Shown here piece by piece: positions 5,051 through 64,000 of a stretch of DNA of 64,000 nucleotides. The stretch is from Psammoneis japonica. Lineage: Eukaryota. The notes beneath the pieces are model-generated. The model was not told the origin of the DNA, ran no database searches, and was given only the letters and a program-made list of their open reading frames with translations. Where the stretch lies: positions 248,001-312,000 of the forward strand of contig QPGO01000074.1 of the NCBI GenBank assembly GCA_008632985.1, in the 5' to 3' direction. The number at the start of each line of letters is the position of its first letter. Positions within the stretch are counted from its first letter, which is position 1. The position numbers were made by a program, and so were the translations under genes.

Positions 5051-5271
5051 TGAAGTTCTCAAAAAAGTCTGAGAGCAAAAACGGCAAGGGGTATGACGTG
5101 GCATCGGAGGGAAAAAATGCCGGCAACTACTGCTGGGGCACACGGCACACCTTCAAGGTTGCAGCTGTTCGGTGTCAATTCAAATTGTTGAACACCACCA
5201 CAATGGCGCCCAGCCCCAGCGCCCATCTGCCGGAAGTTTACTGAATCTCTTTGAACCACAATTTGATCATC

Positions 5272-16129: not shown

Positions 16130-18740
16130 ACAACAACAACAGCGAGATCGCAGGCGAGGAAGCGAAGATTTGAATTACAGAATTTGAACTTCCAATTTTC
16201 TGATGTTCGTGGCCGTGGAAAAGGAAGAGAGAAAAAGGGATTCGACCGTTGAGCGCGCGCCAAAAATGAGCAAAAGAGCGTTGAGAACAAAGCGCAGCTG
16301 TGGGTCCCAGCTCCGCAGTGTCTCACGTGCAAATTTCAGTTCCCCCTTTTTAACTGGGTGCCCACCACGATCGACTAACATCATCCTGACATGAAGTTCT
16401 TGACAACTGTCGGTGTCTGCGTTTGAGGGTTGCACCAGTTGCAGAGCTGCTTCTGAATTTCCTCATCGACTCTCCCTCCTTGCACTTGCCCCCGTGTTGT
16501 TGGAGCATCTGGAGCGAGTGGGAAATGCAAAAATCCCGGAAGCCAAGCTGCAGAAGAGAAGAAGCTTCAGATCCTGATGTGGCAGATTTGGTGTCTTCTT
16601 GAAAGTGAGTGTGCACCCATCACCGATCTCACCAACCTCCTTTCATCTCGCTCTTTGGAGCGAATCATCTGACTCACGTGAGCTGCTCTGTGTCATCAAC
16701 AGGCACCTGCCCATCAAATCATGAGATTGAATTTTATTGAAAACTTCAAGGCATGCTGCAACCACCACAGCAACCAGGACAAGTGCAATGAGCAGCACAG
16801 GAAACCTCAGAGGATTCCCTTTTGGCGGCATTTTGTCTTGTCGGGGTTCAACACTCACTCTCTCCAAAGAGTCACAAGCACTGCATTTGGCACAAACAGA
16901 CACCAACTTCCGTTTGATCATCTGACACAGGAACCTGCATTGTGAGTGGCAGAGGAGGAGGAAGATCCAGCAGAGGAGGCTGAGGATGCAACCAAGGCAG
17001 AGGTGAGACAAAGGTCTCACAAGTCTTTTTGTGACAAGAGCAAGAAGACCAACCAACATGAGTTTCATCTTTCATTGATGAACAGCAACTCACACAATGC
17101 AATGTGCAAAAAATTCAAGAGAAAGATCATCAATCACATGCAGAAGAAGCATGGTCAAGGCACGCATCCAGCAAGGTCCTCAGAAGACATGGGTTGCATT
17201 GATTTCTCCAGCGAGAGTCCTGTGCCCTGGCAGTGCCAGCAGCTGCAACCTCAACACCAGGCAATGCTGATTGTCAGGACATGTGACAAACACAAGAGTG
17301 TGAGAACAAAAGCAATTTGAGCATGAGCACAAGGCCAACCAAGCTGTGCAACTGCAGTGAGAAAGAGAAAAAGCTTGAAGAGAACAAGAGCGCTGCATTC
17401 GTGCTGAGATCACTGCACCAAGCTGATCATGAAGCAAAGAGTGCAGGCCAATCCCAGTTGCCAGGGAGTCAGAGATGACCTGATTGGACCATTGAAGCTA
17501 ATCCAGTCACTCATGTTTAATTCCTCGAGGGGTTGACATCCATTCCGTGCACTTGCCAAGCCCCTGAAGAAGAAGCACTGCACACTGGAGGTGAAAAGCA
17601 ACTGGAGAATGAGTCACCGAAGAGATGCTGCAAGCAAAGGTCTCAGCAGCAAGATGCTAGATGGACTCATCAAAAACACCAAGGAGCACAAGGACTGTGT
17701 CACCTCAGCAAAACAGACTGCATTGACAGGCACTGCATTTGAGATGTGAGTGGACAACATGCCTGTTTGTGGAGAACAGTGATGACTGCTTTTACAAGAG
17801 CCTCATGAGAGACTGCAACGTGGGTGGGGATTCACACCCAAAGACCCTGAAGAATGCAAGTGAATGGAAAACAATGTGTTGCTGAGCCATCAAAGGAGCA
17901 CAATGACCCATGCAAGCAATGCAGCAAGAAGAACAACCAAGGACCCCAATGACAAGACTGAAGATGACAAGACTGAACACAAGTCCAAGAACCCACAAGA
18001 CCAAAGTCATGCAAAAAGTGGCAGTCAAGGTGGCACCACATCTGTCATTGTTGTGGCAAGCCAAGCCACAAGTCCCCAGACTGCAGGCACAAGAACGACA
18101 TTCTGCAGAAAGACTGGCACAAGAATTCCAGCAGGAAACCAGACACCAGGGGACAGAGTCACACTCAGACAAGAGATGAAAACTGTTTGTTGGTGAGCAG
18201 TGACAATGCAAGTGTTGATGCCCACAGATCCAGTCAATCAACAAGCTCAAGCAAGAGCAAAAGGGTGGTTGTTGCATGGTGTGGATTCCAGTTGGAGGAA
18301 CAGGCCAAAGAAAGGCCAGAGACAAGAAGTTTCCGCCAAGCTGATGTCGGCATGGAGTCAGATGAGATCATCCCCGACAATGGTTTGCTGGCGAATCATG
18401 AAACATCATCCTGCTCATGCAGGGTTTTGCCATTGTGCCAAATTGTGGTGGCTGTTTGCGACTGAACAAGAAACATGTTGTTGTGATGTCTGGGCACAAC
18501 AACATGCTCCCCCAATCGTGAACACTGTCAAAACAAAATGGCTGGCATCCAAAAAACCGCATGAAGTCCCCGTGAGGGAAGAAAAGCCTTCCCAAAATGA
18601 ATGTGTGGTCTTAGCAAGAAGCTGATTTGAGCATGGATGAGTGCTCGAGTGTCTAGGATGATTTATGGCATGAAGCTAGAGAGGGCCTGCCATGCATGGC
18701 GACATCAGTTCACCGAGAAAGCAGACTGTGCATGCGAGCG
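16130..18740. mobile_element. TpA/CpG-depleted repeat island C (degenerate coding remnant, family not identified)
   Basis: Near absence of TA; broken, overlapping Cys/His/Gln-rich ORFs. Confidence 0.55.
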
Positions 18741-23652: not shown

Positions 23653-26135
23653 ATGACACCGAGCCAACGACAACGACGAGTAGTTGTAGGACTCGTGTTG
23701 CTCTTTGCAAGCAACGCTGTCGCGCTCAAGTGCCGTGTTGGATGGGGCCAGCAAGAACGTGAGATTCCAACCGATAAAATCAATGACAATTATTGTGATT
23801 GTCCGTATGATGGATTAGATGAACCAAACACGGATGCTTGTGCCGGCTCTGTGGGATGGACGGGTATTTCCGATCAAACTCAAGCCAGGTACGTGTTACC
23901 TATGGATTCTCGTTTGTTCAGAAAGAAATGTGTATCCAAAGCTTGCGTCTTTTGTTTTTCAATTTGCCCAAAAGTCTCCCCGTCTATCAGTGTCCTCAAC
24001 AACCAAAGTTACAATTGTCACTTTCTCGCATCCACGATGGCATTTGCGATTGTTGTGATGGCTCGGATGAAAAACCGGGCACATGTCCCGACATTTGCGA
24101 CCAGGTCTTGGCGGAAGAACGTGCGGCACAAGCCCGAGCCGAACAAAACTTTGCACTTGGTTACCAAAAGCGTCAAGAGTTGCTTGCCGAATTTGAAACG
24201 TTGCGTCAAGAAACCCTAAAAGAGATTGAGATCAAGGAACGCGAACTCAAGGCGGTCGAGGCGGATCAGCAGCAAGCACAGAGTGAAATATTGGTGGCAA
24301 AGCAAGAGTACATGAAGGAGAGACTTGCGCTTGTGGAAAACGTCAGAGACTCTCTAAAAGACTTAGTCAGTCCTCTAAGTCAGGACGAACTTGTGGCGTT
24401 GATTGTGCAATCCTGTCAGCTTGCCGGTGAAATGGAGGGAGCGGAGGAATCCACCTGCGTCCCACTTCGTCTGGCCGGCATGGACATGGGGTTTGTGTGG
24501 GAGGACGAGGATTTGGGAGCTGGCAAGGGGGTATTCAAGCCATTGTTGGAAGACAAGGATGGGTGGAAGCCGATTGCCGAGCTTATGGACAAGCATGTAC
24601 GCGGTCAGCGGTTGGACTGGTCACAGAAGAAGCAAGAGCAGCAGCCGGCGCATTCGCCTTCCCGTCATTCTAGACACAGGAGCAGGAGACGTAACCACGA
24701 TGACGATGATGACGACGACTATTCGAATGATTATGATGAGGATGAATATGGCGACGACACGTACTATGGCGAAGATGATATAGATTATCGAAGCAGGCGC
24801 GACAGCAATGACAAGGATACAAACGTAAATGAGGAGATCCTGAAAGAGATTCGCGGTACGCACTTGTCAAAATTTCGGCTACGGTTTCTCGAAACTGCGC
24901 AAGACCTTATCCGTAAGATTGAGGACTTCACCAACAAGGCTGATGACGACAATGATGCTGAGGAAGACGAAGATGATATGGAGGTTGAAGGCAAGGAGGA
25001 GGAACAGGAAGAGAAGGCAGAAGTTGACCCGAGTGACACGGTCCCATCTGTTGATCCAGCTGCCCTAGAAATGTCAAAAAGCACTCTGCAGCAACGAAAG
25101 GAACGGATCGAACAAGGCTTGGACTATGCTGCGTCCGGGTTGGTACTTACACGTACAGTGGTTGAACAAGCTTTTGTAGAACCGAAAGAGCTGCAAAGTT
25201 GGCTGGCGAATCTAGCGATTGGAACTGTGCTTCACGGGAAACTTTCTTCGCAGGATGTATGGCAGTTGCTAGTGATGAATGTGCCCGAATTTGGATACAA
25301 GTTGTCTGAGATTGAGGAATCTTGCGCCACTAGCGAAGACGGCGACGTGAGCGCTTGTATCGCAGCCGAGAGTGCGGCCTTCGACGCCCATCTCGCTGGC
25401 ATTTGCCCTCCACGAATAATAGAAAGTCGGGGGAACTCTTTTCCTCCCCAACCAATTGTTGATGAGGCCCACGTGTTGTGCGATGGTTTGACCAGTGAAC
25501 CTCCTACATTGGTCTGTACCGCAAGAGACACTGATGAACTGCCAACGGAAATCCCCGATGGATACTGCGGCTATTTCGACATTTATCCACGCGACAATGA
25601 GGACTTTCTCCATGAAAAATTCACGCCGTTGCTATCCTTGGGGGCATCACAAAAGATATCGGAACTAAACGAGAAAATCCGCAACGTGGACGATGCACAT
25701 CGAGAAGTGCAGAAAGAAGTCAATAAGTTGTACGACAAAATCGGTGGCAAGAATCAAGACAAATTTGGACCCAATGGCGAACTGCACTCGCTCAGCCAGG
25801 AATGTCCTTCCATCGAGGCCGGCAAGTACGTGTACGAAGTTTGCCTGTTTGGAAAAGCCAGTCAAAAAGATCGTGGTGATGAGCGCGGCAGCGGAACCGA
25901 TTTGGGAAGATGGAAGAAGATGGAAATAGACGAAGAGACTGGTGAACGCGTCATGACCTGGACAGGCGGCGCCAAGTGCTGGAATGGACCGCAGCGATCA
26001 GCAACTGTTCACGTTACTTGTGGTGTTGAAACACAAGTCCTATCCGCAGAGGAACCCGACACTTGTCGATACGTGCTCGAGATGGAGACTCCCATTGCTT
26101 GTGATGAAGATTACAAGAAGCGATTCGGTCTGTGA
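23653..26135 (+). CDS. PRKCSH: Glucosidase II beta subunit, 2 exons (23653-23888, 23975-26135)
   Basis: Signal peptide; INDNYCDC..DG.DEP.T.AC and IHDGICDCCDGSDE; acidic tract; C-terminal MRH domain (YVYEVC, GAKCWNGPQRS, AEEPDTCRY, TPIAC). Confidence 0.93.
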
Positions 26136-27646: not shown

Positions 27647-30600
27647 ATGACTGAGTTTGAACAGCCAGAGGAGTTGTTGTTCCCGGATGATGATGACGAT
27701 GACTCAAGCTGTGAAAGCCACAGCAGCACACCATCCCATGATGGTCAAAGCAACTCATCTGATGAAAAATGCAGTGAGACTCCTGCAGAATGGTGTGAGA
27801 CCCCACTGCTTCATCCTGGTGACATTGAAGCACATTTCAGTGACGTTGAAAACACTTTTTTGGACAACTGCTTTGAAGAAATGGCACAGATCAAACAAAA
27901 CCTTGTGAACAAAGTGAGGATGTTGTGCACACAAGAAGCAGTGCTGTCAAATGCATGTGATGATCAAGATGAGGCAATGACATCAAATGAGATGTTCAGC
28001 GCACTGTTTGCTCTTCTGGCAGTGCATGAGTTCCTCGGTGTGGTGATGAGCACAAACACGCTGCAGAACAAATGATTTGTTCCAAATTTTGCAGAATTTC
28101 AAGCATTTGTTCGGATCAAATTGTGGCTCTGTTTCCACAACAAGGGGCCTGGAGACATGATTCAATTTTCAGAGGACCACACATCTGCCCAGAATGAAGT
28201 TGACAAATTGAGTGGCAGCACACCAACCAAAAAGCATGAGCACTTGCATCATCCAATGCAGAGTTTGGATGGCAATGACCAACCAAACCAAGAGCCATCA
28301 ATGTGCTGGCAACCTGTCTTTGTTTTGATTGGTCATTGGAAAATCTGTTTGAAATGACAGGCAAAGGCACATCAAGTGTTTGCTGTGTGGTGGGGAAGAC
28401 TCACCTGGTCATTGATGATGACAAGCTTGCATGCAGTCTTTTTTGTCAGCAAATCCATTGCTTGCAAGGAGCAAAGGAATGCAGTCATTTGGCCCGGCAC
28501 GCAATTTTGTCAACTCCCTTGCCACTGGTGCAGAGCTTTCTGGATGCATGATGCACCACTCAGAGGGTGGCATTCATGCCCTCAAGATGAATCTTCTCAC
28601 CACATCTGGACAGTGGAGCCCTGATTTGTTGCAGTTTCCAGACACAATGCCACCAGGAGATGGACGTGGGGATGACAGTGATGACTGTTGTGACCTCCTG
28701 GAAGCAACAGACTTAGACACAGCAAATGCTGTGAAGCGTGGGCTGAATGTGCCACTTGAGTTTGGGAAGACAGGACACAAGACGGGTCACGACAACGTGT
28801 TGTCATCAAGGGCAGACCTGCCATTGCAATTGGCACACCAAAAAAGTTGGAAGAACAACACCACATTTGACAGCTTGGTGAAATGGAACAGGCTGTGTTG
28901 CATTTCTGCAATCTGGCAGGCCATGACTGAGTGTGTCACATGTTGAGCACGAGTGTTTGTGAAGTGAGCCAGAGCCTGTTCTGTGTGTTTCCATGCCGCG
29001 GCACAAGTGGAAGCAAGTGTCTTGGGCCTCCGACACACTTCCAGGCAGTTTTGCATGGAAAGTCTCTTTGCATGGAAGTGTGAAAGCAAGGCTTGCCAGA
29101 GTGGTTTGTGTTGCGATTGCGGCGATTGACTTCTGCTCTGTCACACCACTTGTTGCCAAGGTTGAGGAGTGGACCATCTGCAACAGAAATTGACCTTCTT
29201 GAAACAATGTCTGTCTAAAATTGTGGGACGACCCACCCCCGATTGATCTCTCTCATTCAACAAAGTCAGTGTTGCATCTTGTGGAACTCCAAAAAGATGA
29301 GCTCACTCGCATTTCAAGGTTGCATGGTCATCCTGTGAGTGGGGGTGCCAAGGCTGTCTTGGCAGACAGGATTCACAAAGAACCAATTGAGCTTTTTGAG
29401 CCAACTGCTTTTGATTCGTTGACCAAGAGAACATTTCTGAAACCACTGCAGGACAAAGACAAGAGTGCCCACAAACTCAGATTGCTGAACAAAGAGAAAG
29501 TCTGGGGCGTGATTGGAAGAATCATTTCTGATCATTTTGAGTGTGAGTTTGTGGAGCTGAAAGAATGTGGGCTCACAAGTCGCAAACAAGCCAGGTGGTT
29601 GGCTGCATCACTCAACGGATGGATTGTGTGCAAATGTGGTGACAGCGGCAAAACCAATTCAAGTCTGAGCAACCAACTCCATGCTGGATTAGAGACAAAG
29701 TCACCCACAGGAAAGGACACAAGGAAGCTTGTTGAATGACTTTGAGATGAGTTTGGTGATTGTTCAACATTGAGTGCAGAGATGATCTTTTCAAGGCATT
29801 GGCTCACATGCCAGAGTGTCAAGTCCAAGTGTTGCATCATGTCATGGTTTGCAGCTTTGACAAAGTTCTGTTTGTGGTGGCTGACATGTGCAAACCAATG
29901 TTCTCAGTTGTGGTGTCTTTTTGAGAAGACCACAAACGCAACTGCGAGACTTTGTCATTTTGAACACATCAAAGGGACTTGGAGTGGACGCACATGACAG
30001 CATGGAACAACAAGTCAAGTCCCAAACATCATGTCCCTGAATTTAGAGAAGAGGTGGTGTCAAGCAATGTGCACAGCATTGATCATGACACCATTTTGTT
30101 TCAATGCACGACATGGTGCAAGCTGCTTCTGAAAATGAATGCGCCGGGAATGCTGCTGCCGGTGACGAAGTGCATTGTGTCATCCATTGCAGCTTTCTGG
30201 AACAAGGGAAAGGGAAGGATTGATGAAATGAGCCAGTGCTTGCTCCACATGATGTGGCACATTTTGTGTGGAATGCCAAAGCAGCTTTTGAGCATTCAAG
30301 AAATTGAAAAAAATGTCCTCAACGCGTTCTTGCTGAAGAAGCACTGTTGTCATTTGATGGGCTCCAGTCCTGGGTGGGGCTCCGTGTGACATTGGGCCTG
30401 TGGAATTCTGCGTGCAAGCTCCACAGTGCAAGAATTTAATTGATGGACATGCTCATCTTCAACATCAAATGAACGACCAAGTTTGTGGTGCAATTGTGCC
30501 TCTCAACACTTGACATTTTTGAAGATGCCTGCCCTGTGCCATTCTCAAGACATTTGAGAATGGCGCAGAAGAAACAAATGTCAAAAGTTTTTGGACGGAT

Positions 30601-31024
30601 TGCTCAACAAGTGCACCACAAAATGACACAAAATTTCACAAAAGTCACGCACCTTTCTACATGCACAACACATGGCATGATCCAAAAAACTGTCGATGTC
30701 ACAGTTCAGCAGTGCGAGGTCCCACCTGGAGCTGGAGCCCATCATTTCTTCCCAAGAGAAGCACTCAAAGGAACAACACTGTGTCAGACCAAGCAAGCAC
30801 TTGACAAAAGAGAAGGGTCTGTCACTGCTTTTTTGAAAGAGCTTGCCACCACATGTGTCACAGCTGCGCCAATGCCAGAGACACCTGCATCTCCAGTGAA
30901 AAAGAGACACCAGGAATCGAGCGAAGACAATGACGAAAATTTGGATGTGGGCCTTGACAACATTGACAGCAACAATGAAGATCCATCAGCGGGACAAACT
31001 GCCCAGCAGAGAAGAGAAGCTTGA
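27647..31024 (+). mobile_element. Degenerate piggyBac-like transposase gene with embedded SAP and YqaJ/lambda-exonuclease domains
   Basis: LVIDDDKL (~28405); SAP-like LQKDELTRISRLHGHPVSGGAKAVLADRI; YqaJ-like ECGL..WLAASLNGWIV..GLETKSP; WNKGKGRIDEMSQ resembles the piggyBac YN..KGGVD..DQ motif. Many stops and frameshifts. Confidence 0.55.
30357..30742 (-). mobile_element. MITE, copy 1 of 3
   Basis: TIR ATGGGCTCCAG/CTGGAGCCCAT; flanks CATTTG/CATTTC; reverse-complement homologue of 63096-63482. Confidence 0.85.
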
Positions 31025-32650: not shown

Positions 32651-35131
32651 ATGATGAGTGATGCAAGCAATCACGATGGATGGCTCTCTCAGATCAAGGA
32701 GGAAATCCAAGATGGAATGGGAGAGGAGTGGGATGACGAGTGCTGGACGGAATTCATTCGTGAAGTGGCGTGGTGGCTTGTCCATGAACAAGGCAGAACT
32801 AGAAATGAGATGATTAAAGCCGCCGTGGGTCTCATTGCGTGTGGTGCAAAAACAAAGGAGGATCTGTTTCTGGTTGCTGGGAACCCTCCTGACGATGAAA
32901 AATTGTCCAGAAAGCTTGAGGCGAAAGGCGTGTCTCTCGTCATCTGCGCTGTGTTGTTCAACGAGTGCGTCCATGTGCAACAGATTGGCAAGCCTGAACT
33001 GTTGCTTGCACTTCTGTCCCAAACTGATGCTTCTTGTCAGTGGTGCAAGAAAACATGTTTCGTTGTTAGATGATTTTATTCAACCTTTCTCATTTTCAAT
33101 TTTGGTTTGTTCTTAGACTTTCATGTTGAAGGCTTGTCGAGTGCCATTGAGGGACTTGCACTTGAGCCCAAGCAAGAGCTCCACAATCCGACCAAGGATT
33201 GTAGCACAACATCTGTGCCAGATTTGTTCATGCCTGTAAAGAGCAACAAGCCCAGGGACATGTTGCTGAATCGCCTTTTGGAATTAGAAGGAAAAGGAGA
33301 TGGAAAACAAACACCTGATGTCGCTCCCTTTCTTGCCATTGTTCAATCGAGTGGTTGCGGGAAGACCCGATCAGTTCTGGAGCTAGCCAAGGAACAAAGA
33401 GTTGTGCATTTACTTTGTTCCAACATCAAGGGAGGTCTGCAGTCTCCAAAGGTTGTCACTGATTTTATCAAAAACATCAAAAAGGCCGACACAACCAAAT
33501 TTCGTGAACGAAGAGCTGCCAGATTTCTTCAATGTGTCAAGAAGTGCTCCGGCAAGTGCAACACAGGACAAGAGTCATCCTCCGCTCAATTTAAGGACGG
33601 GAGATTTGCCAATTTCTACGATGAGCTTGCAAAAGTTTATGAAGAAAACCGCACCCCTCCCACTTCCCCCATGCAGAATGGATGCTCGGATTCGAAAAAT
33701 GACTCGTCCTCTTCCGACCGAGAGAATTTGCCATTGGTTGTTGTGTTCGACGAGGCATTGGGTCTGACAGAATCTGATGCGCTCAACTGCGACTCGCCCC
33801 ATCGGTGCATCCGTCGGCTCCTACGTTTGAATGATTTGATCGGGCTGTTCCTCAACATTTCGGGAAAGCTGCATCATTTTGCACCGGAAAATTCCTCATC
33901 GGATAGAATCGCGGGAATTGGCAACTTCGCAGGACCTGTGTTTGAGACAGACACTTTTGACCAGTTCAAAGATCACCTTTTCTTTCTTGGTTGTCCTTTG
34001 TGGAAAATGCAATGGGAGTGTTGTTTGGACAAAGACTGTGGAAAGTTGGTTGAACATGCATGCAGCAAATTGATTCCAAGCAAAACCAAAGGTGAGGATG
34101 CAAGTTGGTTGTGCGTCCCTTTTGTTTGTCGATTTGGGTTGGAACCGAAAAAGTCTCTAGCGGAAAAGATGGTTGCCGACCACATGGCAATGCTGGTGAA
34201 AGTGAGCAAAGACCGCTCAACTGTTGTTGCAAAGTGCAAGTCGGAACCAATTCTCGCGGAAGCTGCAGCACGCATTGCTTGTTGCGAGAAATGTGAAGGC
34301 ATTACGGTGAAAAGAGTGCTGAGAAATGTGAACGCGAATCTAGAAAACAGCATTTTGAAATGTGATGTTGGGGATTGTGGAGAAGTCGCCGCTGCTGCTT
34401 GGCTTGGTTTCACTCTCGATGGTGTCCGCATGATGAAGAATTGCAATGCAGAAACGCTCAATCTGTCATGTGAGGTTGACGTGTTTCAGTTCCTCAAAGT
34501 CTTGGCACCAGATTTGTCGATGTCGCCTCACGAACATCAACTGCAGGGATGGAAGATAAACTTCACACATTTCAATCGGTTGAGCTTTGCGCCCGATCAG
34601 AGCACACTTAAAATTTGCTGGGATCGTCATGCAGCGTTGTACTTGCCGGCCGGCGAAGAAGGCATTGACATGTTGATCGCTTTGTTCAAGGAAGACACTG
34701 TGCAAAACTTTGAGGAATTTGCAACTCTGCAAGTGCCAGTCAAGAATTGCAAAAACAACTTGAGTGAGACGGCTTTGAATGACCTGTTTCAGAAGCTGGA
34801 TGTTCGGTGCTGCTCCCCTTGAACCAAGCTTGCTGATGAACCTTTTTCAGTTGCCTTGGTCATGCAAGTTGGTGAAGGGGACATGGTCAATTTATGCAAA
34901 CTTGCTCAACTTGGAAGAATGACTTGTGCTGGTGCGTGTCACAGCCAAAGTGTCCAATTGCAGTTGGCCTGCACTGTGTCTGGAGATTGTTGCAAAGAAA
35001 TTCAGATGGTGGCAGGCAAATCCGTGGACAACAAGGACTTCATTAACTCGTCACACTCATTTCAAAATGGTGAATTTCCATGGTTCGTAGATGAGCAGTT
35101 TCATGATGTCTCAACGGTTGACTCACCATGA
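32651..35131 (+). pseudogene. Crinkler-like (header + P-loop NTPase + restriction-endonuclease fold) gene, hypermutated
   Basis: Walker A QSSGCGKTR, Walker B VVVFDEA, SEPILAEAA, INFTHF, REase-like GIDMLI...LQVPVKN; only 3 Tyr in 571 aa with excess Cys; premature stop at 34820. Confidence 0.7.
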
Positions 35132-36305: not shown

Positions 36306-39300
36306 CATGGTGAAGAAGAGGAAGCAAGCTGGCATTGGCCATCAACACAAGTCAGGAACTGGCTGCAGCAAAAACAAAAAGCATCGTGGTGAAGGGTTGT
36401 CCTTTCCAAGACAACCTGTCCCCTCTCAAATCAATGCTGAGGGAGCAGCAGCCACTCCCTCCAACCTCATCACTGGCAATGATGCCATCACTCCCTCCAT
36501 TGTTGCTCCCACCAACCAAATTCCTGTCAACCTGGCCCCCTCCACAGAAGACCCCACTTGTTGTGAAAGGTTGTCCTTTCCAAGACAACCCGCCCCCTCC
36601 CAAGTCAATGCCAAAGGAGTGGCAGCCACTCCCTTTGACCTTGCCTCTGACAATGCCACAGTCACTCCCTCCGCTGCTTCTGCCAACCAAACTCCTGTGA
36701 ATCTGAGCCCCTCCACAGAATGCCCCACCTGCAATCATCCACACACCTTTGATGCAACCTGCAAAAATCTCCAGCAAGCACTTTGTTGTGCAGCAGTCAA
36801 AATCAGAGAAGCCACATTTTCTTGCACTGACACTCCAGAGCAACAAGTCTGCGCCTTCATGCACACATTGGAGTTTCCTGAGTTGGCTTTCCATGTTGAG
36901 GCTTGTGATTTGATGTTGCCAAAAACAAAGGCTGCCACCTTGCAAATGACCAAGCAGCCAGGCAAAATGTGGGAATGTGCCAATGACAAAAGCAATGGTC
37001 AATGCCACACTGATGACAAAAATCCTTTTGTCCATTTGGCAGCAACTGCAATCTCCAGCTCTCCAGAAAAATCTGCCAATGAGCCCAAGTTCAATTTCAG
37101 GAACTGCACCAATGCACTCAGCATCAACAAACAAGCTGTTTGTTGACAAATGAGGAAGAGAAAGACTTCCAGAGCATCCTTGATTGAGGACAAAGAAGCC
37201 ATCATGTGGTCTTCAGTGCAACCCCATCATCATCCTCACAAAGTTTCCCCCCAGATTGCAAAGCCTTTGTGCATTGGTCGTCAAATCATCCTGACATGGT
37301 GCAGTCTCTCAACTCAAGAGACACGATGATCCTGAAAACTCTGAGAATCATGCCAGCGCACCATTGACAAATTGGAGAATCTAATTTCCTGTCATCAAGA
37401 GGAAGCGTTTGGCTCCAATTCCAATCACCTTCATCCCAAAGCTTGAGGTGCAGCTTCTGCTGTCATTTGTGGCAATGCCAATGGTCAGGATCATCCTCAT
37501 TGGAAATGCATTCTGGCTGAATGCAAGGATTGCCCATCTTGTCCAGCTCCAATGTTGGAACAGAATGAAAGTCCCAGTGTGCCCAATGTCAAGTTTCAAA
37601 GGCATTTGACTGCAAAATGTTGTTCCAAGCATGGCATGTTTTTGAAAGCATGTCCTGTTTGTGAGGCAGACCCAGAGGGGAACAAGTGTGCAAAAGTCAA
37701 ACACAAGACATTGTTGACAAGGTTCTGCAAGCCAATCGGGGTCTTCACAAAAGAACATTGCACTCCAAGTTTAAGAAGCTTCATTGCCACCTTCCCCACA
37801 TGGCCATTCTGGGGGGGGGAAATCATTGCATGGACATGTGTTGCAAAGCATTTGAGTCACTGCCCAACAGCAATTTCACATCTCATGACTGCTCCAAGCA
37901 TCAGAAGGCAGAGTTCAACAAGCAAGTTCAGGGGGATCATCATGGCAACTCCCAATCACTGTCAATTGAAGGCAGAGTTTGTGATGTGATGATTGACAAT
38001 GAGGCTGAGAAAACCTGTCATGCATTTCTCTCTGATCTTTCTGAGCAAGATGCCACCACAACTCATGCTCACTTGAAAAAGTTTGTCACATGGTCTAAAA
38101 AAAATCGCAATCTGCGTCAGGCATGGCTTGTGATTTGGGATCACACAGGTGGTTGTGCCAAACAGCATCAACGTGCTTTGGCACTGTGCTTGTTGTTGGT
38201 TTTTGCCCACAAATGCAAAGTTGTGTTTGACCGTGCCATTGGAGCACCTGGACATGGCAAAGGAGAGGTTGGTGGAATTGGAGCCTGCATTGAATCACTC
38301 ATGTGTCAAGAAATGCAGCCCACAACTGTTGCAGGAGTCAATGATGAGAATGGGAAAATCAGAGCTGATGATTTGGTCATGGATGACAACAATGTTGTGG
38401 TGGCACACAGTTGTGCTTGGGAATGTTTGAAAATGCTCAAAAAGAAAAAGAGTGCTCTTGGTGCAGCTGGTGACAGGAAACATGCCAAGAGGGAATCCCT
38501 TCAAAAGTTGAAAGTGCGGGTGTGTCATCTGCAAGACCTGGATGAAGTCAATGGTCAGTTGACAAAAGTCAAGTTGCTGGGATTGGCACAACTCGGCATG
38601 CACCATTTGCATTGGCACCCGCGTGCCATTTTTGATTTGAACCCATGTTTCCCACTGGTTGGGTCACCATGCATTGCATTCCTTGCACTTGTGAAGGCTG
38701 CCTGGATCAGCTCAGATGACCTTGTGTGGACAATGTCAGTCCAGCCGAGCAGCCTCAACATGCAGGTGGCAACCGAGCTTGCAAACTTTGGCCCATCTTT
38801 GAGGGACTGAATGATTGGCAAGTTTGTCAGGTGATTCAAACAATTGAGAGTGACTTTTTGACTGACAGAATTGCAGAAGAAATTTTTGCAAACAGCCATG
38901 CCGCATTGTCTTGTGAATCTGATGAAGGCTTCTGTCTGCTGCAATGGGATGAACTGCCCCACAGAGCACAGGAAAATGTGGTGGGGGGTGAGTTTGATCC
39001 ACCCACAACTGTCAAAGCCGGTGAATGGATGTGCAAGGGAGTGCATCTGAGCACTGTTCCAAGGGCCAGAGGATGGTGCACTCCCAGAGACACTGGTGAT
39101 TGTCCAACCAGAGTGTTGCTCAAGCAAATTGTGGTTGCAAACACCAAGCTCAATGACCCATCAGCCTCTCTGCAACTTCCAAGGACGTGCAACAGGAGCT
39201 GGGCTTCACTTCTAAATCCATGTCATTTGACCGATGACAAGCACAAAGCCATTCTTGATGCAATCCACCAGCGCAATTCCCCAGATTGTTTTGAGGAGGA

Positions 39301-43735: not shown

Positions 43736-44063
43736 ATGCGCTCCAGCTCTGCTTGGGTGGGGCCTTGCACTGCACTGCTGAACTGTGACATCAAGAGTTT
43801 TTTGGATTGTGCCGCATGTCGCACATGCAGAAGGCTGCATGTGTGAGAATGAAAATGGGTTGGGTGTGTTCTTTTTAATGTCTGAAGAATGTGCCCAGAC
43901 AAACTGTTAATTGCGCACTTCAAGATTGAAGGAGGAGACATGGTGCGTTCATAAAATTGCCTCTTTTTCTGTTGGCGATCATTTCACAAATTGCTGCGGA
44001 GCTCGCACGTGGAATTCTCCAGGCCCAATGTCACACGGAGTCCCACCCAGGACTGGAACCCAC
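43736..44063 (+). mobile_element. MITE, copy 2 of 3 (divergent interior)
   Basis: Ends ATGCGCTCCAG / CTGGAACCCAC; flanks ATCCTG/CTCCTG; shares gcactgctgaactgtgacatc and gcggagctcgcacgt.gaattct..ggcccaatgtcacacggagtcccacc with 63096-63482. Confidence 0.8.
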
Positions 44064-55519: not shown

Positions 55520-58500
55520 CCACCAGCTTCACTGGCTTGTCTCATCACATCCCAACAGCCAAATCATTTGTCGTTGAAGCCATTTTGCCATGATGCGCAG
55601 CTTGGAGGCATCACCTTTCCCCAATCCAACAGCACTGCCATGATTCATCCTTTTGAAGAAGAAAGCCTTCTGCACAGCATTCAAATGCTCCCAATCTTGC
55701 TGACTGCAAATGCACAGGTTTCTCCACTTGAGCACAGAGTCTTTGATGTGGCCACTGCCAAGCATGTGAGTGCAATTTGTCAGTCCCTCAACTCCACAGA
55801 GCTCAACCTGCATTTGGAAAAATTCATCCACTTCACACTGAAACTCTGCAATGCAATCATTTGACAGGTCCTCTTTGGATCTCATCATTTCCATGGATCT
55901 CTCAAGGTGCAACACACACGTTGTCCAATGGTCTTGACTGTCCTCTTCAACAACTGGCAGGTGTGCCAACACTCGTGTGTGTGGATGGTCCATGCGCAGC
56001 TGCCCAACCTCCTTCTTGTTTTCCTTCAAAGAAAATCTGAAGGAATCTCCATTGTGGTGGAGCGTCGTTGTGCAAAAGGAGAGCCTCATTGATGGTTGAC
56101 TCAACACTTTCAATGCAGTGCTTGATTTGTCCCGTTGTGCTCTGCACCTCTTCAAAAAGTGCTCCATCTTCACAGTTTGCAATCCCCTCCTCAAATGACA
56201 TTGTGGGGCATTTTTCCTGAGTTTCCATGTGCAACATGCAAGGGACAGCCAACATTGAAGTGCAGAGTGCCTTTTCATTTGGCTCCACATGTGCCAAATC
56301 TTCCTTGAAAGCGACAAGCATTTTCTTGCTGCCAATCCTCTTCTTTGGTTGTTCTCTTTTGCCTTCCATGGAGCCACAAATGCTCACTTGTCTGAGGCCC
56401 AACTCTCTGTCCAACAGCTCGCTAAAGTTCATTGCTTCATCTGTGGCCTTGGGCTGGAAATTGATCAACAAAGGGTCACAATCACCTGTGTCTGTTCCTG
56501 TTTCAGACATTCTTGCCTTTGTTTCTCCATCTTTGGGCAATGCATTGCCTGCAATTGTTCGCAGCTGAGCTGCCTCCTTGTCCAGTTTCTTGACAAATGT
56601 TTTGTCACTGACCAACGCCGCTGGTCATCACCTCCGTGCAGCTCTTTGCAACTTGGGCATTTCTTGGCTTTTGGCACAGCGCACCTGCTGGACTTGCGTG
56701 GGCAGCATGGGCAAAAGCATGGTGCCACCTTGCAAGCTCTGCCTTTGTGGAGCCCTTTTGATGGGCAATGTGGTCACCAGTGTGTGGCACTTTCAGAGTT
56801 TCTGCAATGCACAGCTGCCAGTGAGAGCCAATGCATCACGGCGACGTGTTGCAGCCTTTAAATGTCACAAAGGGCATGACAAAAACAACCTTTTGTCTGC
56901 ATGCATGCTGCACCATGAATTCACAGCGGAGTGGTTCATCGCAACCATTGGGCAGGAGGCCAGGGGTTCGAAACCCTGAGTGGGAGTTGTCTGCAGCAAC
57001 GTTGATCACTGTCGAACGCGTAAAACTCTGTGCAGTTCTGCACGTTCCTTCGTGCGTGCCCACACTGTTCCGCCAAAACCGTGCAGTGTCAGCACACGTC
57101 AGTAAAGAGCCGCATGGACGCGCGACACATGGGGAGGAGTGCAACACACAGCTGCCAACAAGAGCCAATGCATCACGGCGACATGTTGCAGCCTCAAATG
57201 TCACAAAGGGCGTGACAAAAATAACCTTTTGTCTGCATGCATGCTGCACTTCTGTGTCTTTATCCACAGATTCCTCCTCACAGTCATTCATGAATTTGTG
57301 GAAATTTTCAAACAGCTTGAAAGTCTCTTGGCTCTCCTGACCTGTCATCACTTGAAATGGGAAACAGCGGTGGCTGGATTGTGCTGTTGCTGCACCACTT
57401 GTGACTGCCAAGCTGGCAATTTTGTCTGTCAATTTGACACCTGCTCTGATGACATTGTCGCGCTTGTTGAGTGTTGCGCCGTGAATGGCAGCACTCACTT
57501 CCACACTTCTGCTGGATGCTTTGTCCCACAGGCTGTGTGCTTTCAACAATGTGGCAGTGTTGGGGCATTCTCAAATGTGAAGCCTTCCCCATGTTCTTCA
57601 CCAAACATTGACGTGGGTGCTTTCCCATCTTGCGCTGCAGCCTCGACATTCTCTGCTGCACTGAGCAGAGCTTTGTTCAATGGTGTCATCCCACAAAAAC
57701 ACCTGGCACCACCACTTTTCACCAGCCAAAGAACCTCAACTCCTGAGTGTGACAGCTTTTGATCCAACAAGATCCGCAGCTCTTAGAAGTTCCCTGGGTG
57801 TGAGTGCATTCTCCCTGAGCCATTTCCAAGACTGCTCAATGATGGGGATTTTGAGAGTGCCGCCACAGAAGTCATCTGAGAATGAAGTGTTCGCCACTGT
57901 CATGTTGGTCTTCTTACACCAACCTTGTTGCATTGGCGGTTTGGCCACTCTTCTAAAAAGGTCTGTGGCTCTTCCTTTGCATCTGCTTCGTTGATTGATG
58001 CTTCCTCATCTTCTTCAGATTTGTCTTCTTCTTTTGCCTCAAAAGACTTCTTGTCATTGTTGTTGTCTTGTTGGCTTGCCTGCATCACCATCTCTCCTTC
58101 CAAAAACCCCCTTCTCTTTTTTGGGTGACCCTTGTTTGCACAGTTCATTGTTGCAACAGCTCCATGGGTTGTCACATCAGATTTGTGGTGGTGCAATCGG
58201 AGCTTCATCTCCAGCTTCTGTGTGGGGCCAATCAACAATGTGTTTCACACCGACACCTGATGCGGCTGTGCTTGGCCTTGCCGCGCCAAGGAGGTGCTTC
58301 TCCTTGTCCCACACAGGCCACAATTGTGGCACAGAAAATGACCTTGATCTCAAAATTTGGTGTGCCTGTTCACACCACAGTTGCAGCAAGCAATGGCAGT
58401 GCTGCCCCCTTTCGAAGTGTGTGGCCAGCAGATGGCAGCAAACACAAGCCACGTGTGGCAACTCTGGCTCAGCTTTGCTGATCTGTTCTTGTCCTTGGGG

Positions 58501-58884: not shown

Positions 58885-59094
58885 CAATTGTGAGAAACTG
58901 GCAGTTTCAGTGCAAAAATGTGCAGATTCTGCAGACGACCAAGTGTGGCATGCATGTCAAGCCACACTCTGTGTCAGCACTGCATCAGCAACTTGAGCCT
59001 TTTTGTGTGCACTTCCTTGTGTCAGAATGAAATGGCAATGTTTGTGCTCCACACAAGTCCTGCAGAATCATGCACAACAGAAATCCACAGAGCG

Positions 59095-59641
59095 CAAGCT
59101 TTTGCACAGTGGAGCCAAAAGAGCTGCAAAGTTGGCTGGCGAATCTGGCGACTGGAGCTGTGCTTCAAGGGAAATTTGAAACTTTCTTTGCAGGATGTGT
59201 GGCAGTTGCTGGTGATGAACGTGCCTGATTTTTGGCGCAAGCTGTCTGAGATTGAGGAATCATGCACCACTGGCGAGGATGACAACATGAGTTCTTGTGT
59301 TGCAGCCGAGAGTGTGGCCTTCAACGCCCATCTCGCCGGCATTTGCCCTCCATGAATGACAGAAAGTCAGGGGAATTCTTTTCCTCCTCAGCCAATTGTT
59401 GACGCGGCCCACGTGTTGTGTGATGGTGTGACAAGTGAACCTCCTGCATTGGTCTGCACTGCAAAAGACTCTGGCGGAGGTCAGTTGCCAAAACAGAAAT
59501 CCCTGGTGGTTGCTGTGGCTGTTTTGACATCTGTCCACATCACAATTGGGAGTTTCTCCATGAAAAGTTCACACCATTGCCATCCTTGGGGTCATCACAA
59601 AAAATGTTGGAACTGAACGAGAAAATCCGCAATGTGGACGA
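59095..59641 (+). pseudogene. Partial, hypermutated duplicate of the glucosidase II beta gene (matches 25167-25693)
   Basis: Colinear nucleotide alignment to the intact gene; in-frame stop (CGA>TGA) and small indels. Confidence 0.95.
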
Positions 59642-60172
59642 CATGCTGCAGCATGCCTCGCCACTGGACAACACGGCGAGACCGTGCGTGAGCCTCTTGT
59701 ACATGGCAACGCAGCATTGTCAACACGCACCTGGGAAGCACGACCACAGGAGGGCGTGGCTCTAGGTCTTGGGCAATTCCAGAAGGATGCTAAGAGAGCA
59801 TCCGTGTGAAGCACACTGGCCCGTCGTCTGGCCCACGATGGCAGCGTGATTCCACACGATGACATCACTCGTGCACAGCGCGTGATGGCGTGATTCGCAC
59901 GATCCACAATGCAAACGCACGATCGATTTGATGCGATCCAAATGCGAACGAACAGGGATTTGGCAAGATTCCCTGTTCACACGATCCCATTTTCTCTACT
60001 CTAAACCAGCTCAAAATTTTCACAACGACAAAGTCGCAACACATCTTCTTTTTCAGCGCCTGGCACATGCACAGGGCACAGCAATGTCACTCCCACATGT
60101 TGTGCGAGGTGACGAAATCTACAGAAACGAAACTACGAAATGTTGGTGGGACCGACAAATCTTAAAACGACC

Positions 60173-61189
60173 ATGAAGAAGCGGGTTGAGCCGCCGATTC
60201 CGTTCGCGTGGCCGGAGAAGAAAGAGCTGCAGCAGGGCGAGCACCAGACGTTCAAGCTGCGCAACAACCCTGCTGATCCGGATGGTCCAACACACGAGAT
60301 GGGCATTCCGTGCCTTTCTGCGGCTACATGCGAGACACTCCCAATCTTTCTGCGCAACGTGGATTGCGTGCACGAAGGACAAAACATCACGACCGGGCCA
60401 GCGAAATTTGCCCTTGTGCGTGACCCACTGCAGGGCGATGCTCTGACGTCATTTGACAATGCCGCTGACAAGCAGGCATCCCAAACCAATGCCACGTGCG
60501 CAGCATGTGTCGCGAAGCTAAAGGAAAGCATCTTCCCACATGGGGCGGTGCCATTGCAGAAGCATCATCTGAGGCGCTTCATGCACAAGCCCGCAGAGGT
60601 TTCTGCTCGTGACTGCGTCGTGAGGGCTGTTGAAATTAACGGCTGTGTCTCTCAGTTTCCACCCGTGACGGAGGATGGAGAAGCACCGGCACCATCACCT
60701 GATGACGAACCATGCGACATGTTCGAGTGCGGTGTGCCGAACGCATGGCAGAAGTTCATGATGCTGCAGAATTTTGACCCGTTGGCGCATGCTGTCGCCG
60801 AATTTGTGCAGTTCTGCGAGCGCATCGAGCAGGTCGAGCTTGCTGAAGGTAACCAGGACCAACATGCTAAGGTTCCACGCAAGCGGGGACGTAGAACGGA
60901 CAATTCTGAGTCGTTGATCATGACCCAACGGAACACCCAGAAGTCATGCATGCCACACGGGACCAACTGTGGACATCATACAGAGGATTGCCGTCAGCTC
61001 AAGCACCACATGAAACGTGTCAAGACTGGACATTCCAGTAACGGAGGCAGCAAACCCAACACAAAACCTCGGAATGAGGAAGATGTTGACACTCTCATCG
61101 GATCAAAGGTCGAGGAGTTCTTTGCCAACGCTCAGAAAAAGCGCAAGGCACGCGAGGAGGAGCTCAATCACTTCGCGACCTCAACTTAA
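60173..61189 (+). pseudogene. gag: gag of the gypsy element (open frame, no Tyr codons)
   Basis: LQGDALTSF, IFP...LQKHHLRR, GVPNAWQ, zinc-knuckle-like CMPHGTNCGHHTEDC. Confidence 0.8.
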
Positions 61190-61360
61190 GCGATTCCGAA
61201 GATTCGGACACTTGAGAAGGGGGCCGACACGACACAGGTAGTTTTAACACAGATGAATGCACAAATGAACAACTGAATTACCATCGTACACGTGTTGTAG
61301 GCCAATCCCGCAAACGAGTTAAAAAGACTCATCTTGCTCCAATCTTGTTTACAGCTATGA

Positions 61361-64000
61361 ATGCTAAACATGGCAAGGGCAAGACTCAAACCATTAAGGC
61401 ACTGCTATATAGTGGCGCCAGCAGTGCTCTACTCGACAGTCGATACTGTAAACGTCTGCGAAGCCATTCAACGGCTGAAACAAACTGGACTACGGACGGC
61501 AGCAGGCTCGTTCAGTACGTCTAACGACTATACCGTTAAATTTTGGTTACCAGAATTATACGAAACTGCAGAACTTAAACATACCGTCCACGTACACAAC
61601 GGAAAGTTGGGCAAGTACGATATGATTATTGGACGTGACATTCTGGAGACACAAGGCATTGATATTGTCTTCTCTAAACAGATGATAGAGTGGCCATTAG
61701 TCAATGGAGAAGTACCAATGAGGCACGTAGATGCTACGGTAGAAACCTCCTTCTATCTTCAAGATCCAGAAGCCTTATCTTCGGAAACCGACCGGATTTC
61801 GCGTATTTTAGACGCTAAGTACGCGCCGGCCTGCCTCAAGGACATAACGCGAGGGGCAATAGGAATTTCTATAGTTCAACAAAACGACCTTTTGGCATTA
61901 TTGAAACGCCATGAGTCCTTATTTGATGGGACATTAGGAGAATGGAAGGGAGAACCCTACCATATCCAACTCAAGGAGGGTGTAGAACCATACCACGCTC
62001 GTCCGTATAAAGTACCTCGTGCGTACGAAGCTACGCTACGTAAAGAAGTAGAACGCCTAGTACGTATTGGTGTTCTCAAACGCGTTAACCGATCCCAATG
62101 GGCAGCTCCATCATTTATCATACCGAAGAAAGATTTAACGGTACGTTTTATTAATGATTTGAGAGAGCTGAATAAACGGATCAAGCGATTGCCTTATGCG
62201 ATTCCTCATATCCAAGACATGCTACTTGAGCTCGAAGGCTTTATGTGGGCTACATCACTGCATTTAAATGTCGGCTGTTATCACATCCGATTGGATGCTG
62301 ACAGCAAGAAGCTCTGCACGCTCATCTTCCCGTGGGGCAAGTATGAGATGCAGGCATTGCCCATGGGATCATGCAATTCGCCAGACATTTTCCAAGAACG
62401 CATGTCAGGCTCATTTGAAGATCTGTCGTTCGCTCGAACGCACTTAGATGACCTTCTCGTCGTGACGAAAGGCACCTGTGAAGATCACCTCAACAAACTT
62501 GAAGAAGTTTCATTGAGGGTCCAGAAAGCAGGACTAAAAGTTAACGCAACTAAATCTCACTTCTGTCAAACCCAATTAGAGTGCTTGGGTCATCTGGCCA
62601 ACAGAGACGGAATGCGACCAATGCCCAATGAAGTCGACGCCATTGAGCAAATCGCGACCCCAGCCAATGAACGTGACCTGCGCTCATTTGTTGGCATGGT
62701 GAACTGCTGCCGCGACACGTGGATTAGACTTTCTGAAGTCTTGGCTTCGCTGACACGACTCGCAAGCGAGACTGTCAAGTGGAAGTGGACGTCCATTGAA
62801 GACGAGGCGTTCCAAACCGTCAAACGGGTGACATCGGACAATGTTTCATTGTCACATCCTGATTTTAACAAACCCTTTGAGATGCATGCCGATGCCTCTA
62901 AATGTCAATTGGGAGCAGTTGCATCCCAAGACAACAAACCTGTCGCCTTTTACAGCAGAAAGCTTGACAGTGCGCAATTAAATTGTGCAACAACGGAGAG
63001 AGAATTGCTCGCCATTGTGGAGACGTTGAAAGAATTTCGAACGATTCTCCTTGGTCATCGTGTGGTCACATGTGCTGATCATAAAAAATCTTACGACGCG
63101 TTCCAGGTCTAGGTGGGACCTCGCACTGCTGAACTGTGACATCGACAGTTTTTTGAATCTCGTCGTATGTCGCGCACGTAGAATTCTACGTGATTTTTTG
63201 ACATTTTGTGTCATTTTATGGTGCACTTGTTGAGCGATCCGTCCAAAAACTTTTGACATTTTTTGTCACAGCGCGATTCTATGATGTCTTAAGAATCGCG
63301 CAGGGCAGGTGCATTTGCAAAAACGTCGAGTGGCAAGAGGCACAATTGTGCCACAAACTTGGCCGTTTATTTGATGTTGAAGATGGTTGCATCCATTGAT
63401 TAAATTCTCGCACTGCGGAGCTCGCACGTAGAATTCTGCGGGCCCAATGTCACACGGAGTCCCACCTGGGGCTGGAACGCGTCTTACGTGCAAAGCACTC
63501 AATGCCGAGCGCGCCATGCGCTGGCGGTTGACATGCGAAGAATGCGGTCCCGAATTACGCTGTGTCAAGGGTGCCCACAACCTGGTCGCTGACGCTCTTG
63601 GTCGCCTTCGACCAGCACCCAGCTTGCCTTCCGAGGCCAATCTGGATGCAAAAGACACTCCATCGAGTCGTCCTTTGCATGAAGCTTTTAATGCAGACGC
63701 GCAAGATGAGACATCTCTGCCTGTTAGCTTCAAGCGCATTCAAAAAGCACAACAAAAGGACAAGCGCCTGCTCTCACGAGCTGAGGACTCGTCCGACTGC
63801 TCCATTTGCGCGCATCGTGGGGGAAGGTCATCACCACAGTTAATCTGTCATAAGGACAAAATCGCAGTGCCACAGTCATTGCAGGCTCCGCTAACTGAAT
63901 GGCGCCACGAGACACTGTGTCATCCAGGTGAGACACGTGCGGAAACATCCATTGCCCAGCACTTCCATTGGCCCAGTGTGAGGTCTACGGTGCATTCTAC
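61361..64000 (+). pseudogene. pol: pol of the gypsy element (protease, RT, RNase H, start of integrase)
   Basis: ALLYSGASS (protease D>Y, in another frame), YDMIIGRD, WAAPSFIIPKK, HLDDLL (YLDD), DASKCQLGA, TERELLAIV, DHK | MITE | RWRL, NLVADALGRL, HETLCHPG. Confidence 0.92.
63096..63482 (+). mobile_element. MITE, copy 3 of 3 (least mutated), inserted in RNase H
   Basis: Perfect terminal ACGCGTTCCAG/CTGGAACGCGT extending to an imperfect ~24-bp TIR; perfect 6-bp TSD CTTACG (63090-63095, 63483-63488). Confidence 0.92.

Follow-up and report, generated by a model that had tools for sequence, protein, structure and literature searches.

Near-total loss of TpA dinucleotides from mobile-derived DNA segments in a 64-kb window of the diatom Psammoneis japonica

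Results

Layout of the window

The window analyzed here is a 64,000-nucleotide stretch of the genome of the diatom Psammoneis japonica (GenBank assembly GCA_008632985.1, contig QPGO01000074.1, positions 248,001 to 312,000 of the forward strand; all coordinates below count from its first letter). Approximately 40 kb of it falls into sharply bordered blocks, six segments in all, from which the dinucleotide TpA has almost disappeared (observed/expected ratio, O/E, between 0.03 and 0.08), and the largest block contains a partial copy of the gene for the glucosidase II beta subunit, the intact form of which lies in the same window. The blocks were delimited by a 1-kb dinucleotide profile together with segmentation on the gaps between successive TpA. 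The features needed first are the following:

3187..5091, no strand: small intergenic TpA-free block (O/E of TpA 0.08, CpG 0.37, TG 1.65, CA 1.77)
12042..14643, no strand: small TpA-free block; its core, 12934–14643, has 3 TpA in 1.7 kb
16177..18611, no strand: small TpA-free block between two divergent genes (O/E of TpA 0.05, CpG 0.30)
25167..25693, plus strand: source segment in the intact glucosidase II beta gene, within the open reading frame (ORF) 23838–26135 with PRKCSH domains
26579..~59650, no strand: main block by dinucleotide profile, TpA-free, CpG-poor and TG/CA-rich, with relics of mobile elements
59095..59641, plus strand: hypermutated, dead copy of the glucosidase II beta gene fragment (84% identity to the source, in-frame TGA)

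The copied gene segment

Self-comparison of the window with blastn paired 25167–25693 with 59095–59641 (81.7% identity over 547 columns, E = 1e-152), exactly the coordinates given in a first-pass annotation of this DNA. In the core of the MAFFT alignment 443 of the 526 aligned positions are identical (84%), with 20 gap columns. None of the 17 TpA of the source segment is left in the copy (13 became TG, 3 CA, and 1 CG). The annotation had likewise counted 17 of 17 lost, and its tally of fates (12, 3, 1, and one site at an indel) differs from ours by one site because of a single alignment choice. The loss of CpG is less complete: 10 of 36 are kept, 13 became TG, 10 CA, and 3 something else, so that 72% (26/36) were lost, where the annotation had estimated roughly two-thirds. 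Of 472 dinucleotides of the remaining 14 types, the copy retains 358 (76%), and Fisher tests separate TpA both from these (p = 8e-11) and from CpG (p = 0.02). In total, the copy carries 24 A>G, 17 C>T, 13 G>A, and 11 T>C substitutions and 18 transversions relative to the source. It thus differs from the gene also by transversions, as well as by indels and one stop codon, the TGA that stands where the gene has R526.

The domains found by Pfam in ORF 23838–26135 identify its product as the glucosidase II beta subunit, the best relatives of which are diatom proteins at 33–42% identity (those named belong to Seminavis, Cylindrotheca, Mayamaea, and Skeletonema). The polarity of the differences between gene and copy was judged with 41 orthologues. 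At Y576 and Y579, where the copy has cysteine, 36 and all 41 of the orthologues, respectively, carry tyrosine as the gene does, and the gene rather than the copy also matches them at I528, R585, D574, P569, and T463. At E543 and T557 the orthologues match the copy instead; the copy thus looks ancestral there, and therefore 1 of the 17 "lost" TpA may have been gained by the gene. Because the orthologues side with the gene and the copy has a stop at R526, the copy is the derived, dead form, and the direction of change proposed in the annotation, from TpA to TpG/CpA, is upheld by this polarization. Its further claim, that the mutation is confined to particular DNA, agrees with the state of the source segment, which retains all 17 TpA, including those in synonymous CTA and GTA codons. 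No strand-coordinated runs were evident in the order of TG and CA along the copy.

Sequence context of the changes

Within the source/copy pair, transitions affected 18 of the 34 A:T pairs that belong to TpA, approximately one hit per dinucleotide, in contrast to 17 of 227 elsewhere, which makes the specificity for the A of TpA claimed by the annotation extreme. With T as its 5′ neighbor, A shows 18 transitions in 34 sites; with A, C, or G in that place the figures are 8/80, 4/72, and 5/75, respectively. Transversions were found at none of the 34 base pairs in TpA. Transitions of C affect 25 of 72 sites before G and 5 of 191 at all other C. Outside TpA and CpG, A:T>G:C changes (17/227) exceed G:C>A:T changes (5/191), the reverse of the usual bias, and this background excess suggests a weak off-motif action of the same mutator.

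The main block provides larger numbers. It contains 107 TpA in 33 kb, compared with approximately 1,340 expected at the density of the normal (not TpA-depleted) DNA of the window. Among these survivors 33 stand in TTAA (vs. 41 of 789 TpA in normal DNA), none in ATAT, and one in ATAC/GTAT. With the counts in normal DNA scaled by length, TTAA survives in 47% of cases, half-sites (a preceding T or a following A) in 11%, and VTAB (V, not T; B, not A) in 2.7%. These classes are additive on a log scale, a pattern consistent with independent hits on each of the two strands, against which a 3′ A protects approximately 5-fold, and the survival of TTAA suggests the motif T-A-[C/T/G]. TAG survives better than TAC and TAT. 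The losses of TAN plus CGN (1533, 1556, 1263, and 1531 for N = A, C, G, and T) are roughly equal to the gains of TGN plus CAN (1452, 1700, 1087, and 1182, in the same order). By trinucleotide excess, TAA was mostly converted to CAA (318), and TAC and TAT more often to TGC and TGT (~170 each).

Composition and borders of the blocks

Between 26601 and 59650 the main block shows O/E values of 0.05 for TpA, 0.29 for CpG (0.96 in the normal DNA of the window), 1.78 for TG, and 1.75 for CA. AA/TT is not depleted (1.25 vs. 1.12 in normal DNA), and the base composition of the blocks is unchanged, the GC content being 46–50% as in the rest of the window. In normal DNA, TpA is under-represented too (O/E 0.60), and the longest gap without it is 148 bp. 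The sub-stretch 33067–33638 of the main block is less depleted than its surroundings.

The borders are abrupt. Inside the right border at 14,643 there are 395 bp without TpA, and outside it approximately one TpA per 10–20 bp. The left border of the main block at 26,579 is sharp to ~300 bp and lies 444 bp past the stop codon of the glucosidase gene, the TpA-rich 3′ untranslated region (UTR) of which abuts the block directly. Genes for a thioredoxin, an SCO4226-like protein, and the signal peptidase subunit SPC22 lie in regions of normal TpA content. So do ordinary spacers (e.g., at 20.4–21.5 kb), and therefore not all non-coding DNA is affected. The depletion is thus restricted to mobile-derived segments: long terminal repeat (LTR), P-loop, and DDE-like relics are found in the blocks, and genes, the 3′ UTR, and spacers keep their TpA. 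In a control set of 80 metagenome loci around relatives of the glucosidase II beta gene (616 kb) the longest TpA-free gap is 391 bp, so that the TpA-free signature is not a general property of DNA of this sort; these loci, being short, gene-rich contigs, serve as a control of the method and are no proof that other diatoms lack the process.

The block at 16177–18611 ends 137 and 272 bp from the start codons of its divergent neighbors, a GT2 gene (14865–16040, minus strand) and a sugar transporter gene (18883–20355, plus strand). If promoters lie within this block, the description "silent" may not fit every block.

Relic open reading frames and repeat fragments

Further features, most of them within the main block, allow the direction of change to be examined independently of the gene copy:

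30350..30750, minus strand: old fragment of the LTR-like end of a Ty3-type element (81% identity to 63090–63490)
33074..34819, plus strand: relic 582-codon ORF of a P-loop family, compared with 11 homologues at tyrosine columns
37665..38807, plus strand: relic 381-codon ORF of a widespread family (340 homologues)
43772..44062: second fragment of the Ty3-type LTR-like end
56900..57150, no strand: piece of a high-copy repeat, other genomic copies of which still have TpA
59650..64000, plus strand: Ty3-type retroelement copy, TpA-poor and CpG-normal, with a gag-like ORF (60140–61189) and a pol ORF (61361–63112)

The P-loop family is patchily distributed, with members among diatom-like metagenome proteins and in Hydra. 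At the 11 columns where at least 4 of the 11 homologues have tyrosine, the relic has Cys at six, His at two, Arg (CGC) at one, and Tyr at the other two. Another five Cys stand at Arg positions of the homologues, and these are products of CpG decay. The ORF at 37665–38807, whose family is possibly that of a DUF7869-like DDE transposase (a lead only), has no tyrosine whatsoever; at its 11 tyrosine columns it has Cys (5), His (2), Leu (2), Trp (1), and Thr (1), i.e., 8 of the 11 are now TGY, CAY, or TGG codons. Several of the long ORFs that are still open in the main block have no tyrosine. The LTR fragment at 30350–30750 has kept 2 of the 12 TpA (4 became TG and 3 CA) and 8 of the 29 CpG of 63090–63490. 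At six positions of the repeat piece 56900–57150 where the window has CA or TG, TA accounts for 4–65% of the summed contig depth. Over the repeats of the window, TA elsewhere faces CA/TG in the window at 13 of 31 differences and the reverse is seen at none; the 31 were taken from 40 listed of a total of 136, and one row supported solely in run X2 (see below) was omitted. Overall, the six polarized comparisons (gene copy, LTR fragment, P-loop, DDE-like, gag-like, and pol) agree on TA being converted to TG/CA.

The main block contains 19 ORFs of at least 200 codons, in contrast to 3.2 in first-order Markov simulations. We read these as dead coding sequences that are still open, since the conversion of TA to TG/CA removes TAA and TAG, and new in-frame stops arise solely through CGA>TGA. 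Gene finders would probably call them genes. A Pfam search with 141 stop-to-stop ORFs (at least 110 amino acids) from the TpA-free blocks returned no hit beyond two sub-threshold chance ones, and another with eight intact homologues of the P-loop and DDE-like relic families gave no match. The main block also contains short direct repeats at 36386–36731 and 42132–42461 (~175 bp, 77–81% identity), and the ORF 36226–37143 carries a duplicated peptide segment matching the former.

The Ty3-type element and the order of TpA and CpG loss

The gag-like ORF of the element at the right end of the window has no tyrosine, and all five columns with Tyr in both of its two homologues now read His, His, Cys, Cys, and His. 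Alignment of the pol ORF to the Ty3 reverse transcriptase structure 4ol8 reveals the replacement of five tyrosines by His or Cys (YLDD to HLDD, LGY to LGH, NYYR to NCCR, and NY to NC). As the catalytic motif is HLDD, the pol of this copy is already dead, though its ORF is still open. In a contig assembled from run X2, position 60136 is joined to 60845, which omits 708 bases of the gag-like ORF; this contig represents a variant of the element that has undergone deletion or splicing.

Over most of the element, TpA amounts to just 1–7 and CpG to 7–20 per 200 bp (CpG O/E ~1). As this copy is TpA-poor with normal CpG, the loss of TpA precedes that of CpG and can proceed in the absence of CpG deamination. 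In the older DNA both are lost. The low CpG ratio of the main block (0.29 vs. 0.96) and the conversion of CG to TG (13) and CA (10) in the gene copy have the pattern of methyl-CpG decay, which, judged from the sequence, would be a second, slower component acting on the same DNA. Across the main block the numbers of TpA and CpG in 500-bp intervals are correlated (Spearman 0.44, p = 3e-4, n = 64), as expected if both losses accumulate in place with age. The GC content stays near 48% because both processes yield TG/CA and shift it in opposite directions. The TpA loss is patchy, which suggests bursts or local protection.

Support from sequencing reads

The sequence was compared with public sequencing run X1, the library type of which is not on record. 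This run contains 92% of the sampled words of 50001–60000, and its contigs span 44–59.7 kb in pieces of 0.6–4.1 kb at a k-mer depth of 64–76 with 0–2 mismatches each. A check with independent reads had been proposed in the first-pass annotation as the way to expose a base-calling artefact; the X1 contigs show the TA-free sequence, not TA. Every site in them has a single state, with no TG/CA mixture. Contigs as deep and as contiguous as these would presuppose accurate reads, and since contigs at a depth of ~65–76 carry the same TA-free sequence, the loss is no base-calling artefact. X1 confirms the chemistry but cannot be taken as another individual. In runs X2 and X3 almost none of the words occur, and their coverage consists of repeats and the real gene.

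In the unique TpA-free DNA (44000–59700) the window and X1 differ by eight substitutions, five of which are CG vs. CA/TG, and several 1-nt differences are at homopolymers. CpG decay that is heterozygous or segregating may account for these, or else errors left in the assembly. A run of 190 N marking an assembly gap (32426–32615) and a single N (13565) are both situated within TpA-free blocks.

Discussion

A TpA-directed mutational process

A heritable process acting in place has changed TpA to TpG/CpA, i.e., A:T to G:C at one of the two pairs, on particular, probably silent, mobile-derived segments of this genome. It has run near to saturation within sharp borders, sparing the neighboring genes and ordinary spacers, and it is faster than, and independent of, the decay of methylated CpG that later affects the same DNA. 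From its saturation at 84% identity between gene and copy, the relative rate at TpA would be at least 10–20-fold elevated.

Mettrop et al. (bioRxiv April 2026, 10.64898/2026.01.13.699255) recently reported a similar process for the chlorarachniophyte Bigelowiella natans. In its mutation-accumulation lines, 231 of 302 new nuclear point mutations fall within two integrated viral regions; practically every mutation in the viral regions is A>G or T>C, and each of them affects TpA. They arise in some lines only, at a rate given as ~6e-7 per site per generation (an elevation of ~1000-fold), and their targets are silent, single-copy integrated DNA of nucleocytoplasmic large DNA viruses (NCLDV) and virophages. 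Adenine deamination is proposed there, with an ADAT2-like candidate named. Both cases share A>G/T>C changes at TpA giving TpG/CpA and a single-copy target of foreign origin, which in the diatom, too, is probably silent, and in B. natans the activity is episodic among lines. Unlike the rhizarian B. natans, where new mutations were measured, the diatom presents the accumulated end state. The depletion is mild in the former (Rho for TpA of 0.45 in the NCLDV region) and near total in the latter (0.03–0.08). The text of the preprint does not contain the words "diatom," "CpG," or "trinucleotide," leaving CpG decay, a 3′-neighbor rule, and TTAA survival unaddressed, and we did not find sharp borders beside genes or open dead ORFs in its Results and Discussion (10.64898/2026.01.13.699255).

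For P. japonica we consider a targeted TpA process, with a TadA/ADAT2-type DNA adenine deaminase as the candidate agent, to be the best explanation, with a probability of approximately 0.6. Most likely, adenine would be deaminated enzymatically to hypoxanthine in DNA and read as G. An enzyme of this type would prefer 5′-T-A-(C/T) to T-A-G, and both strongly to T-A-A, acting on each strand independently, and would be recruited to silenced foreign DNA, or be admitted nowhere else, and work episodically instead of all the time. The hypermutation of B. natans, confined to TpA, would then be a system of the same kind. The requirement for a 5′ T is seen in the source/copy transitions (18/34 after T), and a DNA-acting adenine deaminase remains our best guess from sequence patterns.

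TadA/ADAT2-3, ADAR, and the mRNA editing of the fungal sexual stage all cause A to be read as G, with U/T directly 5′ of the target. The known natural substrates of TadA/ADAT2-3 and their offshoots are RNA, and we know of no heritable genomic signature left by them. ADAR accepts a 5′ neighbor in the order U ~ A > C > G and prefers a 3′ G. ADAR-type editing was rejected for the window: changes at AA are not raised, and TAG is less favored than TAC/TAT. Mobile-element restriction driven by a deaminase is known from the action of AID/APOBEC on retroelement cDNA, and APOBEC produces C>U in single-stranded DNA.

Several points weigh against this explanation. The TG:CA ratio of 13:3 in the gene copy is an unexplained strand bias (p = 0.02). 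Applied to 31 polarized outcomes, the strand-wise neighbor model (log-likelihood −21.8) did no better than a coin flip (−21.5); the alternative neighbor gave −26.3. Two TAA sites of the gene copy became TGA, contrary to the strand-wise model. A patch of the otherwise converted Ty3-type element (61200–62200) was spared and has 10–20 TpA per 200 bp, which may reflect bursts or patchy action, protection of this stretch, or gene conversion with an unmutated copy as donor. The silence of the blocks is deduced from their gene-free, relic content, and run X1 may derive from the assembly's own sample and hence be no biological replicate. Finally, deamination of adenine and a lesion directed at thymine are indistinguishable by sequence.

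Alternative explanations

The last point gives weight to a serious rival, in which the targeting is the same and a TET/JBP-type oxygenase makes 5-hydroxymethyl- or 5-formyluracil at TpA in silent DNA, which pairs with G with increased frequency and leads to T>C. The rivalry stands because the signature is strand-symmetric, T-A-B for adenine being equivalent to V-T-A for thymine, and the changes at TpA are all transitions, as this explanation also predicts. 5-Hydroxymethyluracil of dinoflagellates is reported to prefer TpA and TpC. We nonetheless regard a thymine-directed oxygenase as considerably less probable than the deaminase: among the matches listed for this base together with diatoms, all concern dinoflagellates and none diatom DNA; oxidized thymines are usually repaired rather than fixed at near 100%; and the rule of U/T before A is intrinsic to TadA/ADAT enzymes by general knowledge, as is also argued in the preprint (10.64898/2026.01.13.699255). 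Lower still is the probability that the elements were edited before integration, with their RNA or cDNA hyper-edited from A to I during retrotransposition so that the copies arrived TpA-poor. Such editing would account for the polymorphism of the high-copy Ty3-type family (TA vs. CA/TG at 13 of the 31 listed variant sites), for a gag-like ORF that is TpA-free but open, and for the sense-strand excess of TG in the gene copy. It does not account for hits on both strands of each relic (3 CA in the gene copy; His at 2 P-loop, 2 DDE-like, and 3 gag-like columns), or for the conversion of a captured gene fragment and of the DDE-like relic (if that lead is right). The grading of TpA loss with CpG loss in the main block indicates accumulation in place, and the B. 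natans mutations arise in resident single-copy DNA (10.64898/2026.01.13.699255).

The first-pass annotation had also proposed Pol eta-type error-prone patch repair (WA>WG) set off by T:G mismatches from 5-methylcytosine deamination, as in somatic hypermutation. In its favor are an A:T hotspot that, as here, has T as the 5′ neighbor, and the loss of CpG as well as TpA from the old blocks. Pol eta also hits AA, however, and gives transversions, neither of which is seen in the diatom copy: AA>AG is barely raised (8/80, near 4/72 for CA and 5/75 for GA), none of the 34 TpA base pairs has a transversion, and AA/TT is undepleted in the main block. Mismatches derived from 5-methylcytosine are not the trigger, because the Ty3-type copy lost its TpA with CpG intact (O/E ~1). 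With no AA effect, no transversions at TpA, and intact CpG in a young copy, this repair is largely refuted, and we give it very little credence. An artefact of sequencing or assembly, through miscalled modified bases or faulty polishing, is even harder to credit. In its favor are the N gaps, the 1-nt differences from X1, some at homopolymers, the CG vs. CA/TG state of five of the eight substitution differences, and the unrecorded library type. Against it, the X1 contigs of 0.6–4.1 kb at a depth of 64–76 reproduce the TA-free sequence, whereas an ambiguous base would yield TG/CA mixtures at each site and fragment the contigs; furthermore, indels, transversions, and a stop likewise separate the gene copy from its source, and genes a few hundred bp away are normal. 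Equally improbable is an absence of any targeting, in which a genome-wide neutral bias, or selection against TpA exerted by TA-cutting nucleases or TA-inserting transposons, would act on all unconstrained DNA. TpA is indeed under-represented throughout, also in normal DNA (0.60), but the synonymous TpA of the source gene and those of the 3′ UTR and other spacers were kept over the same time span, the borders are sharp, approximately 1,200 single sites in dead DNA are beyond the reach of selection, and no such block occurs in the 80 related metagenome loci.

Relation to known systems

Fungal repeat-induced point mutation (RIP) depends on RID/DIM-2, changes C to T at CpA, creates TpA, lowers the GC content, and needs duplication. 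The process described here resembles it as a dinucleotide-specific transition hypermutation that kills mobile elements and can be followed by a diagnostic dinucleotide index. Unlike in RIP, TpA is destroyed at constant GC content, and the source gene, which matches its orthologues, is undamaged. RIP was consequently rejected on direction (0 of 72 transitions at C before A), on the base affected, and on homology dependence. The label "reverse RIP" used by the first-pass annotation overreaches, as RIP mutates both homologous copies and the source gene here is untouched. The decay of methylated CpG, which is present here too, leaves TpA alone as a process and runs toward A:T. A diatom methyltransferase related to RID, DNMT4, has no known function according to PMC9998398.

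The annotation knew of no description of the phenomenon in diatoms. In this it stands, as we found no report of TpA>TpG in diatoms and no second report beyond B. natans, in a search to which subscription journals were outside coverage; the kind of process, by contrast, had already been reported in the 2026 preprint. Prior to that preprint we know of no natural process that writes A:T>G:C at TpA into genomic DNA. The window is the first diatom case, and a saturated one, of the recently described TpA hypermutation, and adds a second, distant lineage to it.

Implications

The TpA signature is now seen in a diatom, which belongs to a distant lineage of great ecological importance, and the window displays its end state, i.e., tens of kilobases almost without TpA, dead genes still open, and a GC content levelled by the opposing decay of CpG. 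It also contributes mechanistic constraints that are absent from the text of the preprint, namely independence of CpG decay, the 3′-neighbor rule, strand-wise additive hits, sharp borders, and patchiness, and argues against the idea of Pol eta-type repair for TpA hypermutation. For practical purposes, the TpA O/E ratio is a simple index for old mobile DNA missed by similarity searches, and annotators should be warned that long ORFs in TpA-free DNA are not genes. Diatoms can be cultured and transformed, which makes them a place to find the enzyme.

A broader possibility, which we put forward tentatively and hold to be less likely than its opposite, is that diatoms and chlorarachniophytes share an old, chromatin-guided DNA adenine editor that recognizes 5′-T-A-(C/T/G) in both strands of double-stranded DNA resident in the genome, is not tied to cytosine methylation, and acts in bursts on newly silenced invaders. 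If this is true, such an editor can erase every tyrosine codon and all TAA and TAG from invaders, and it would represent a widespread arm of eukaryotic genome immunity rather than a lineage oddity, and a natural counterpart of the engineered adenine base editors.

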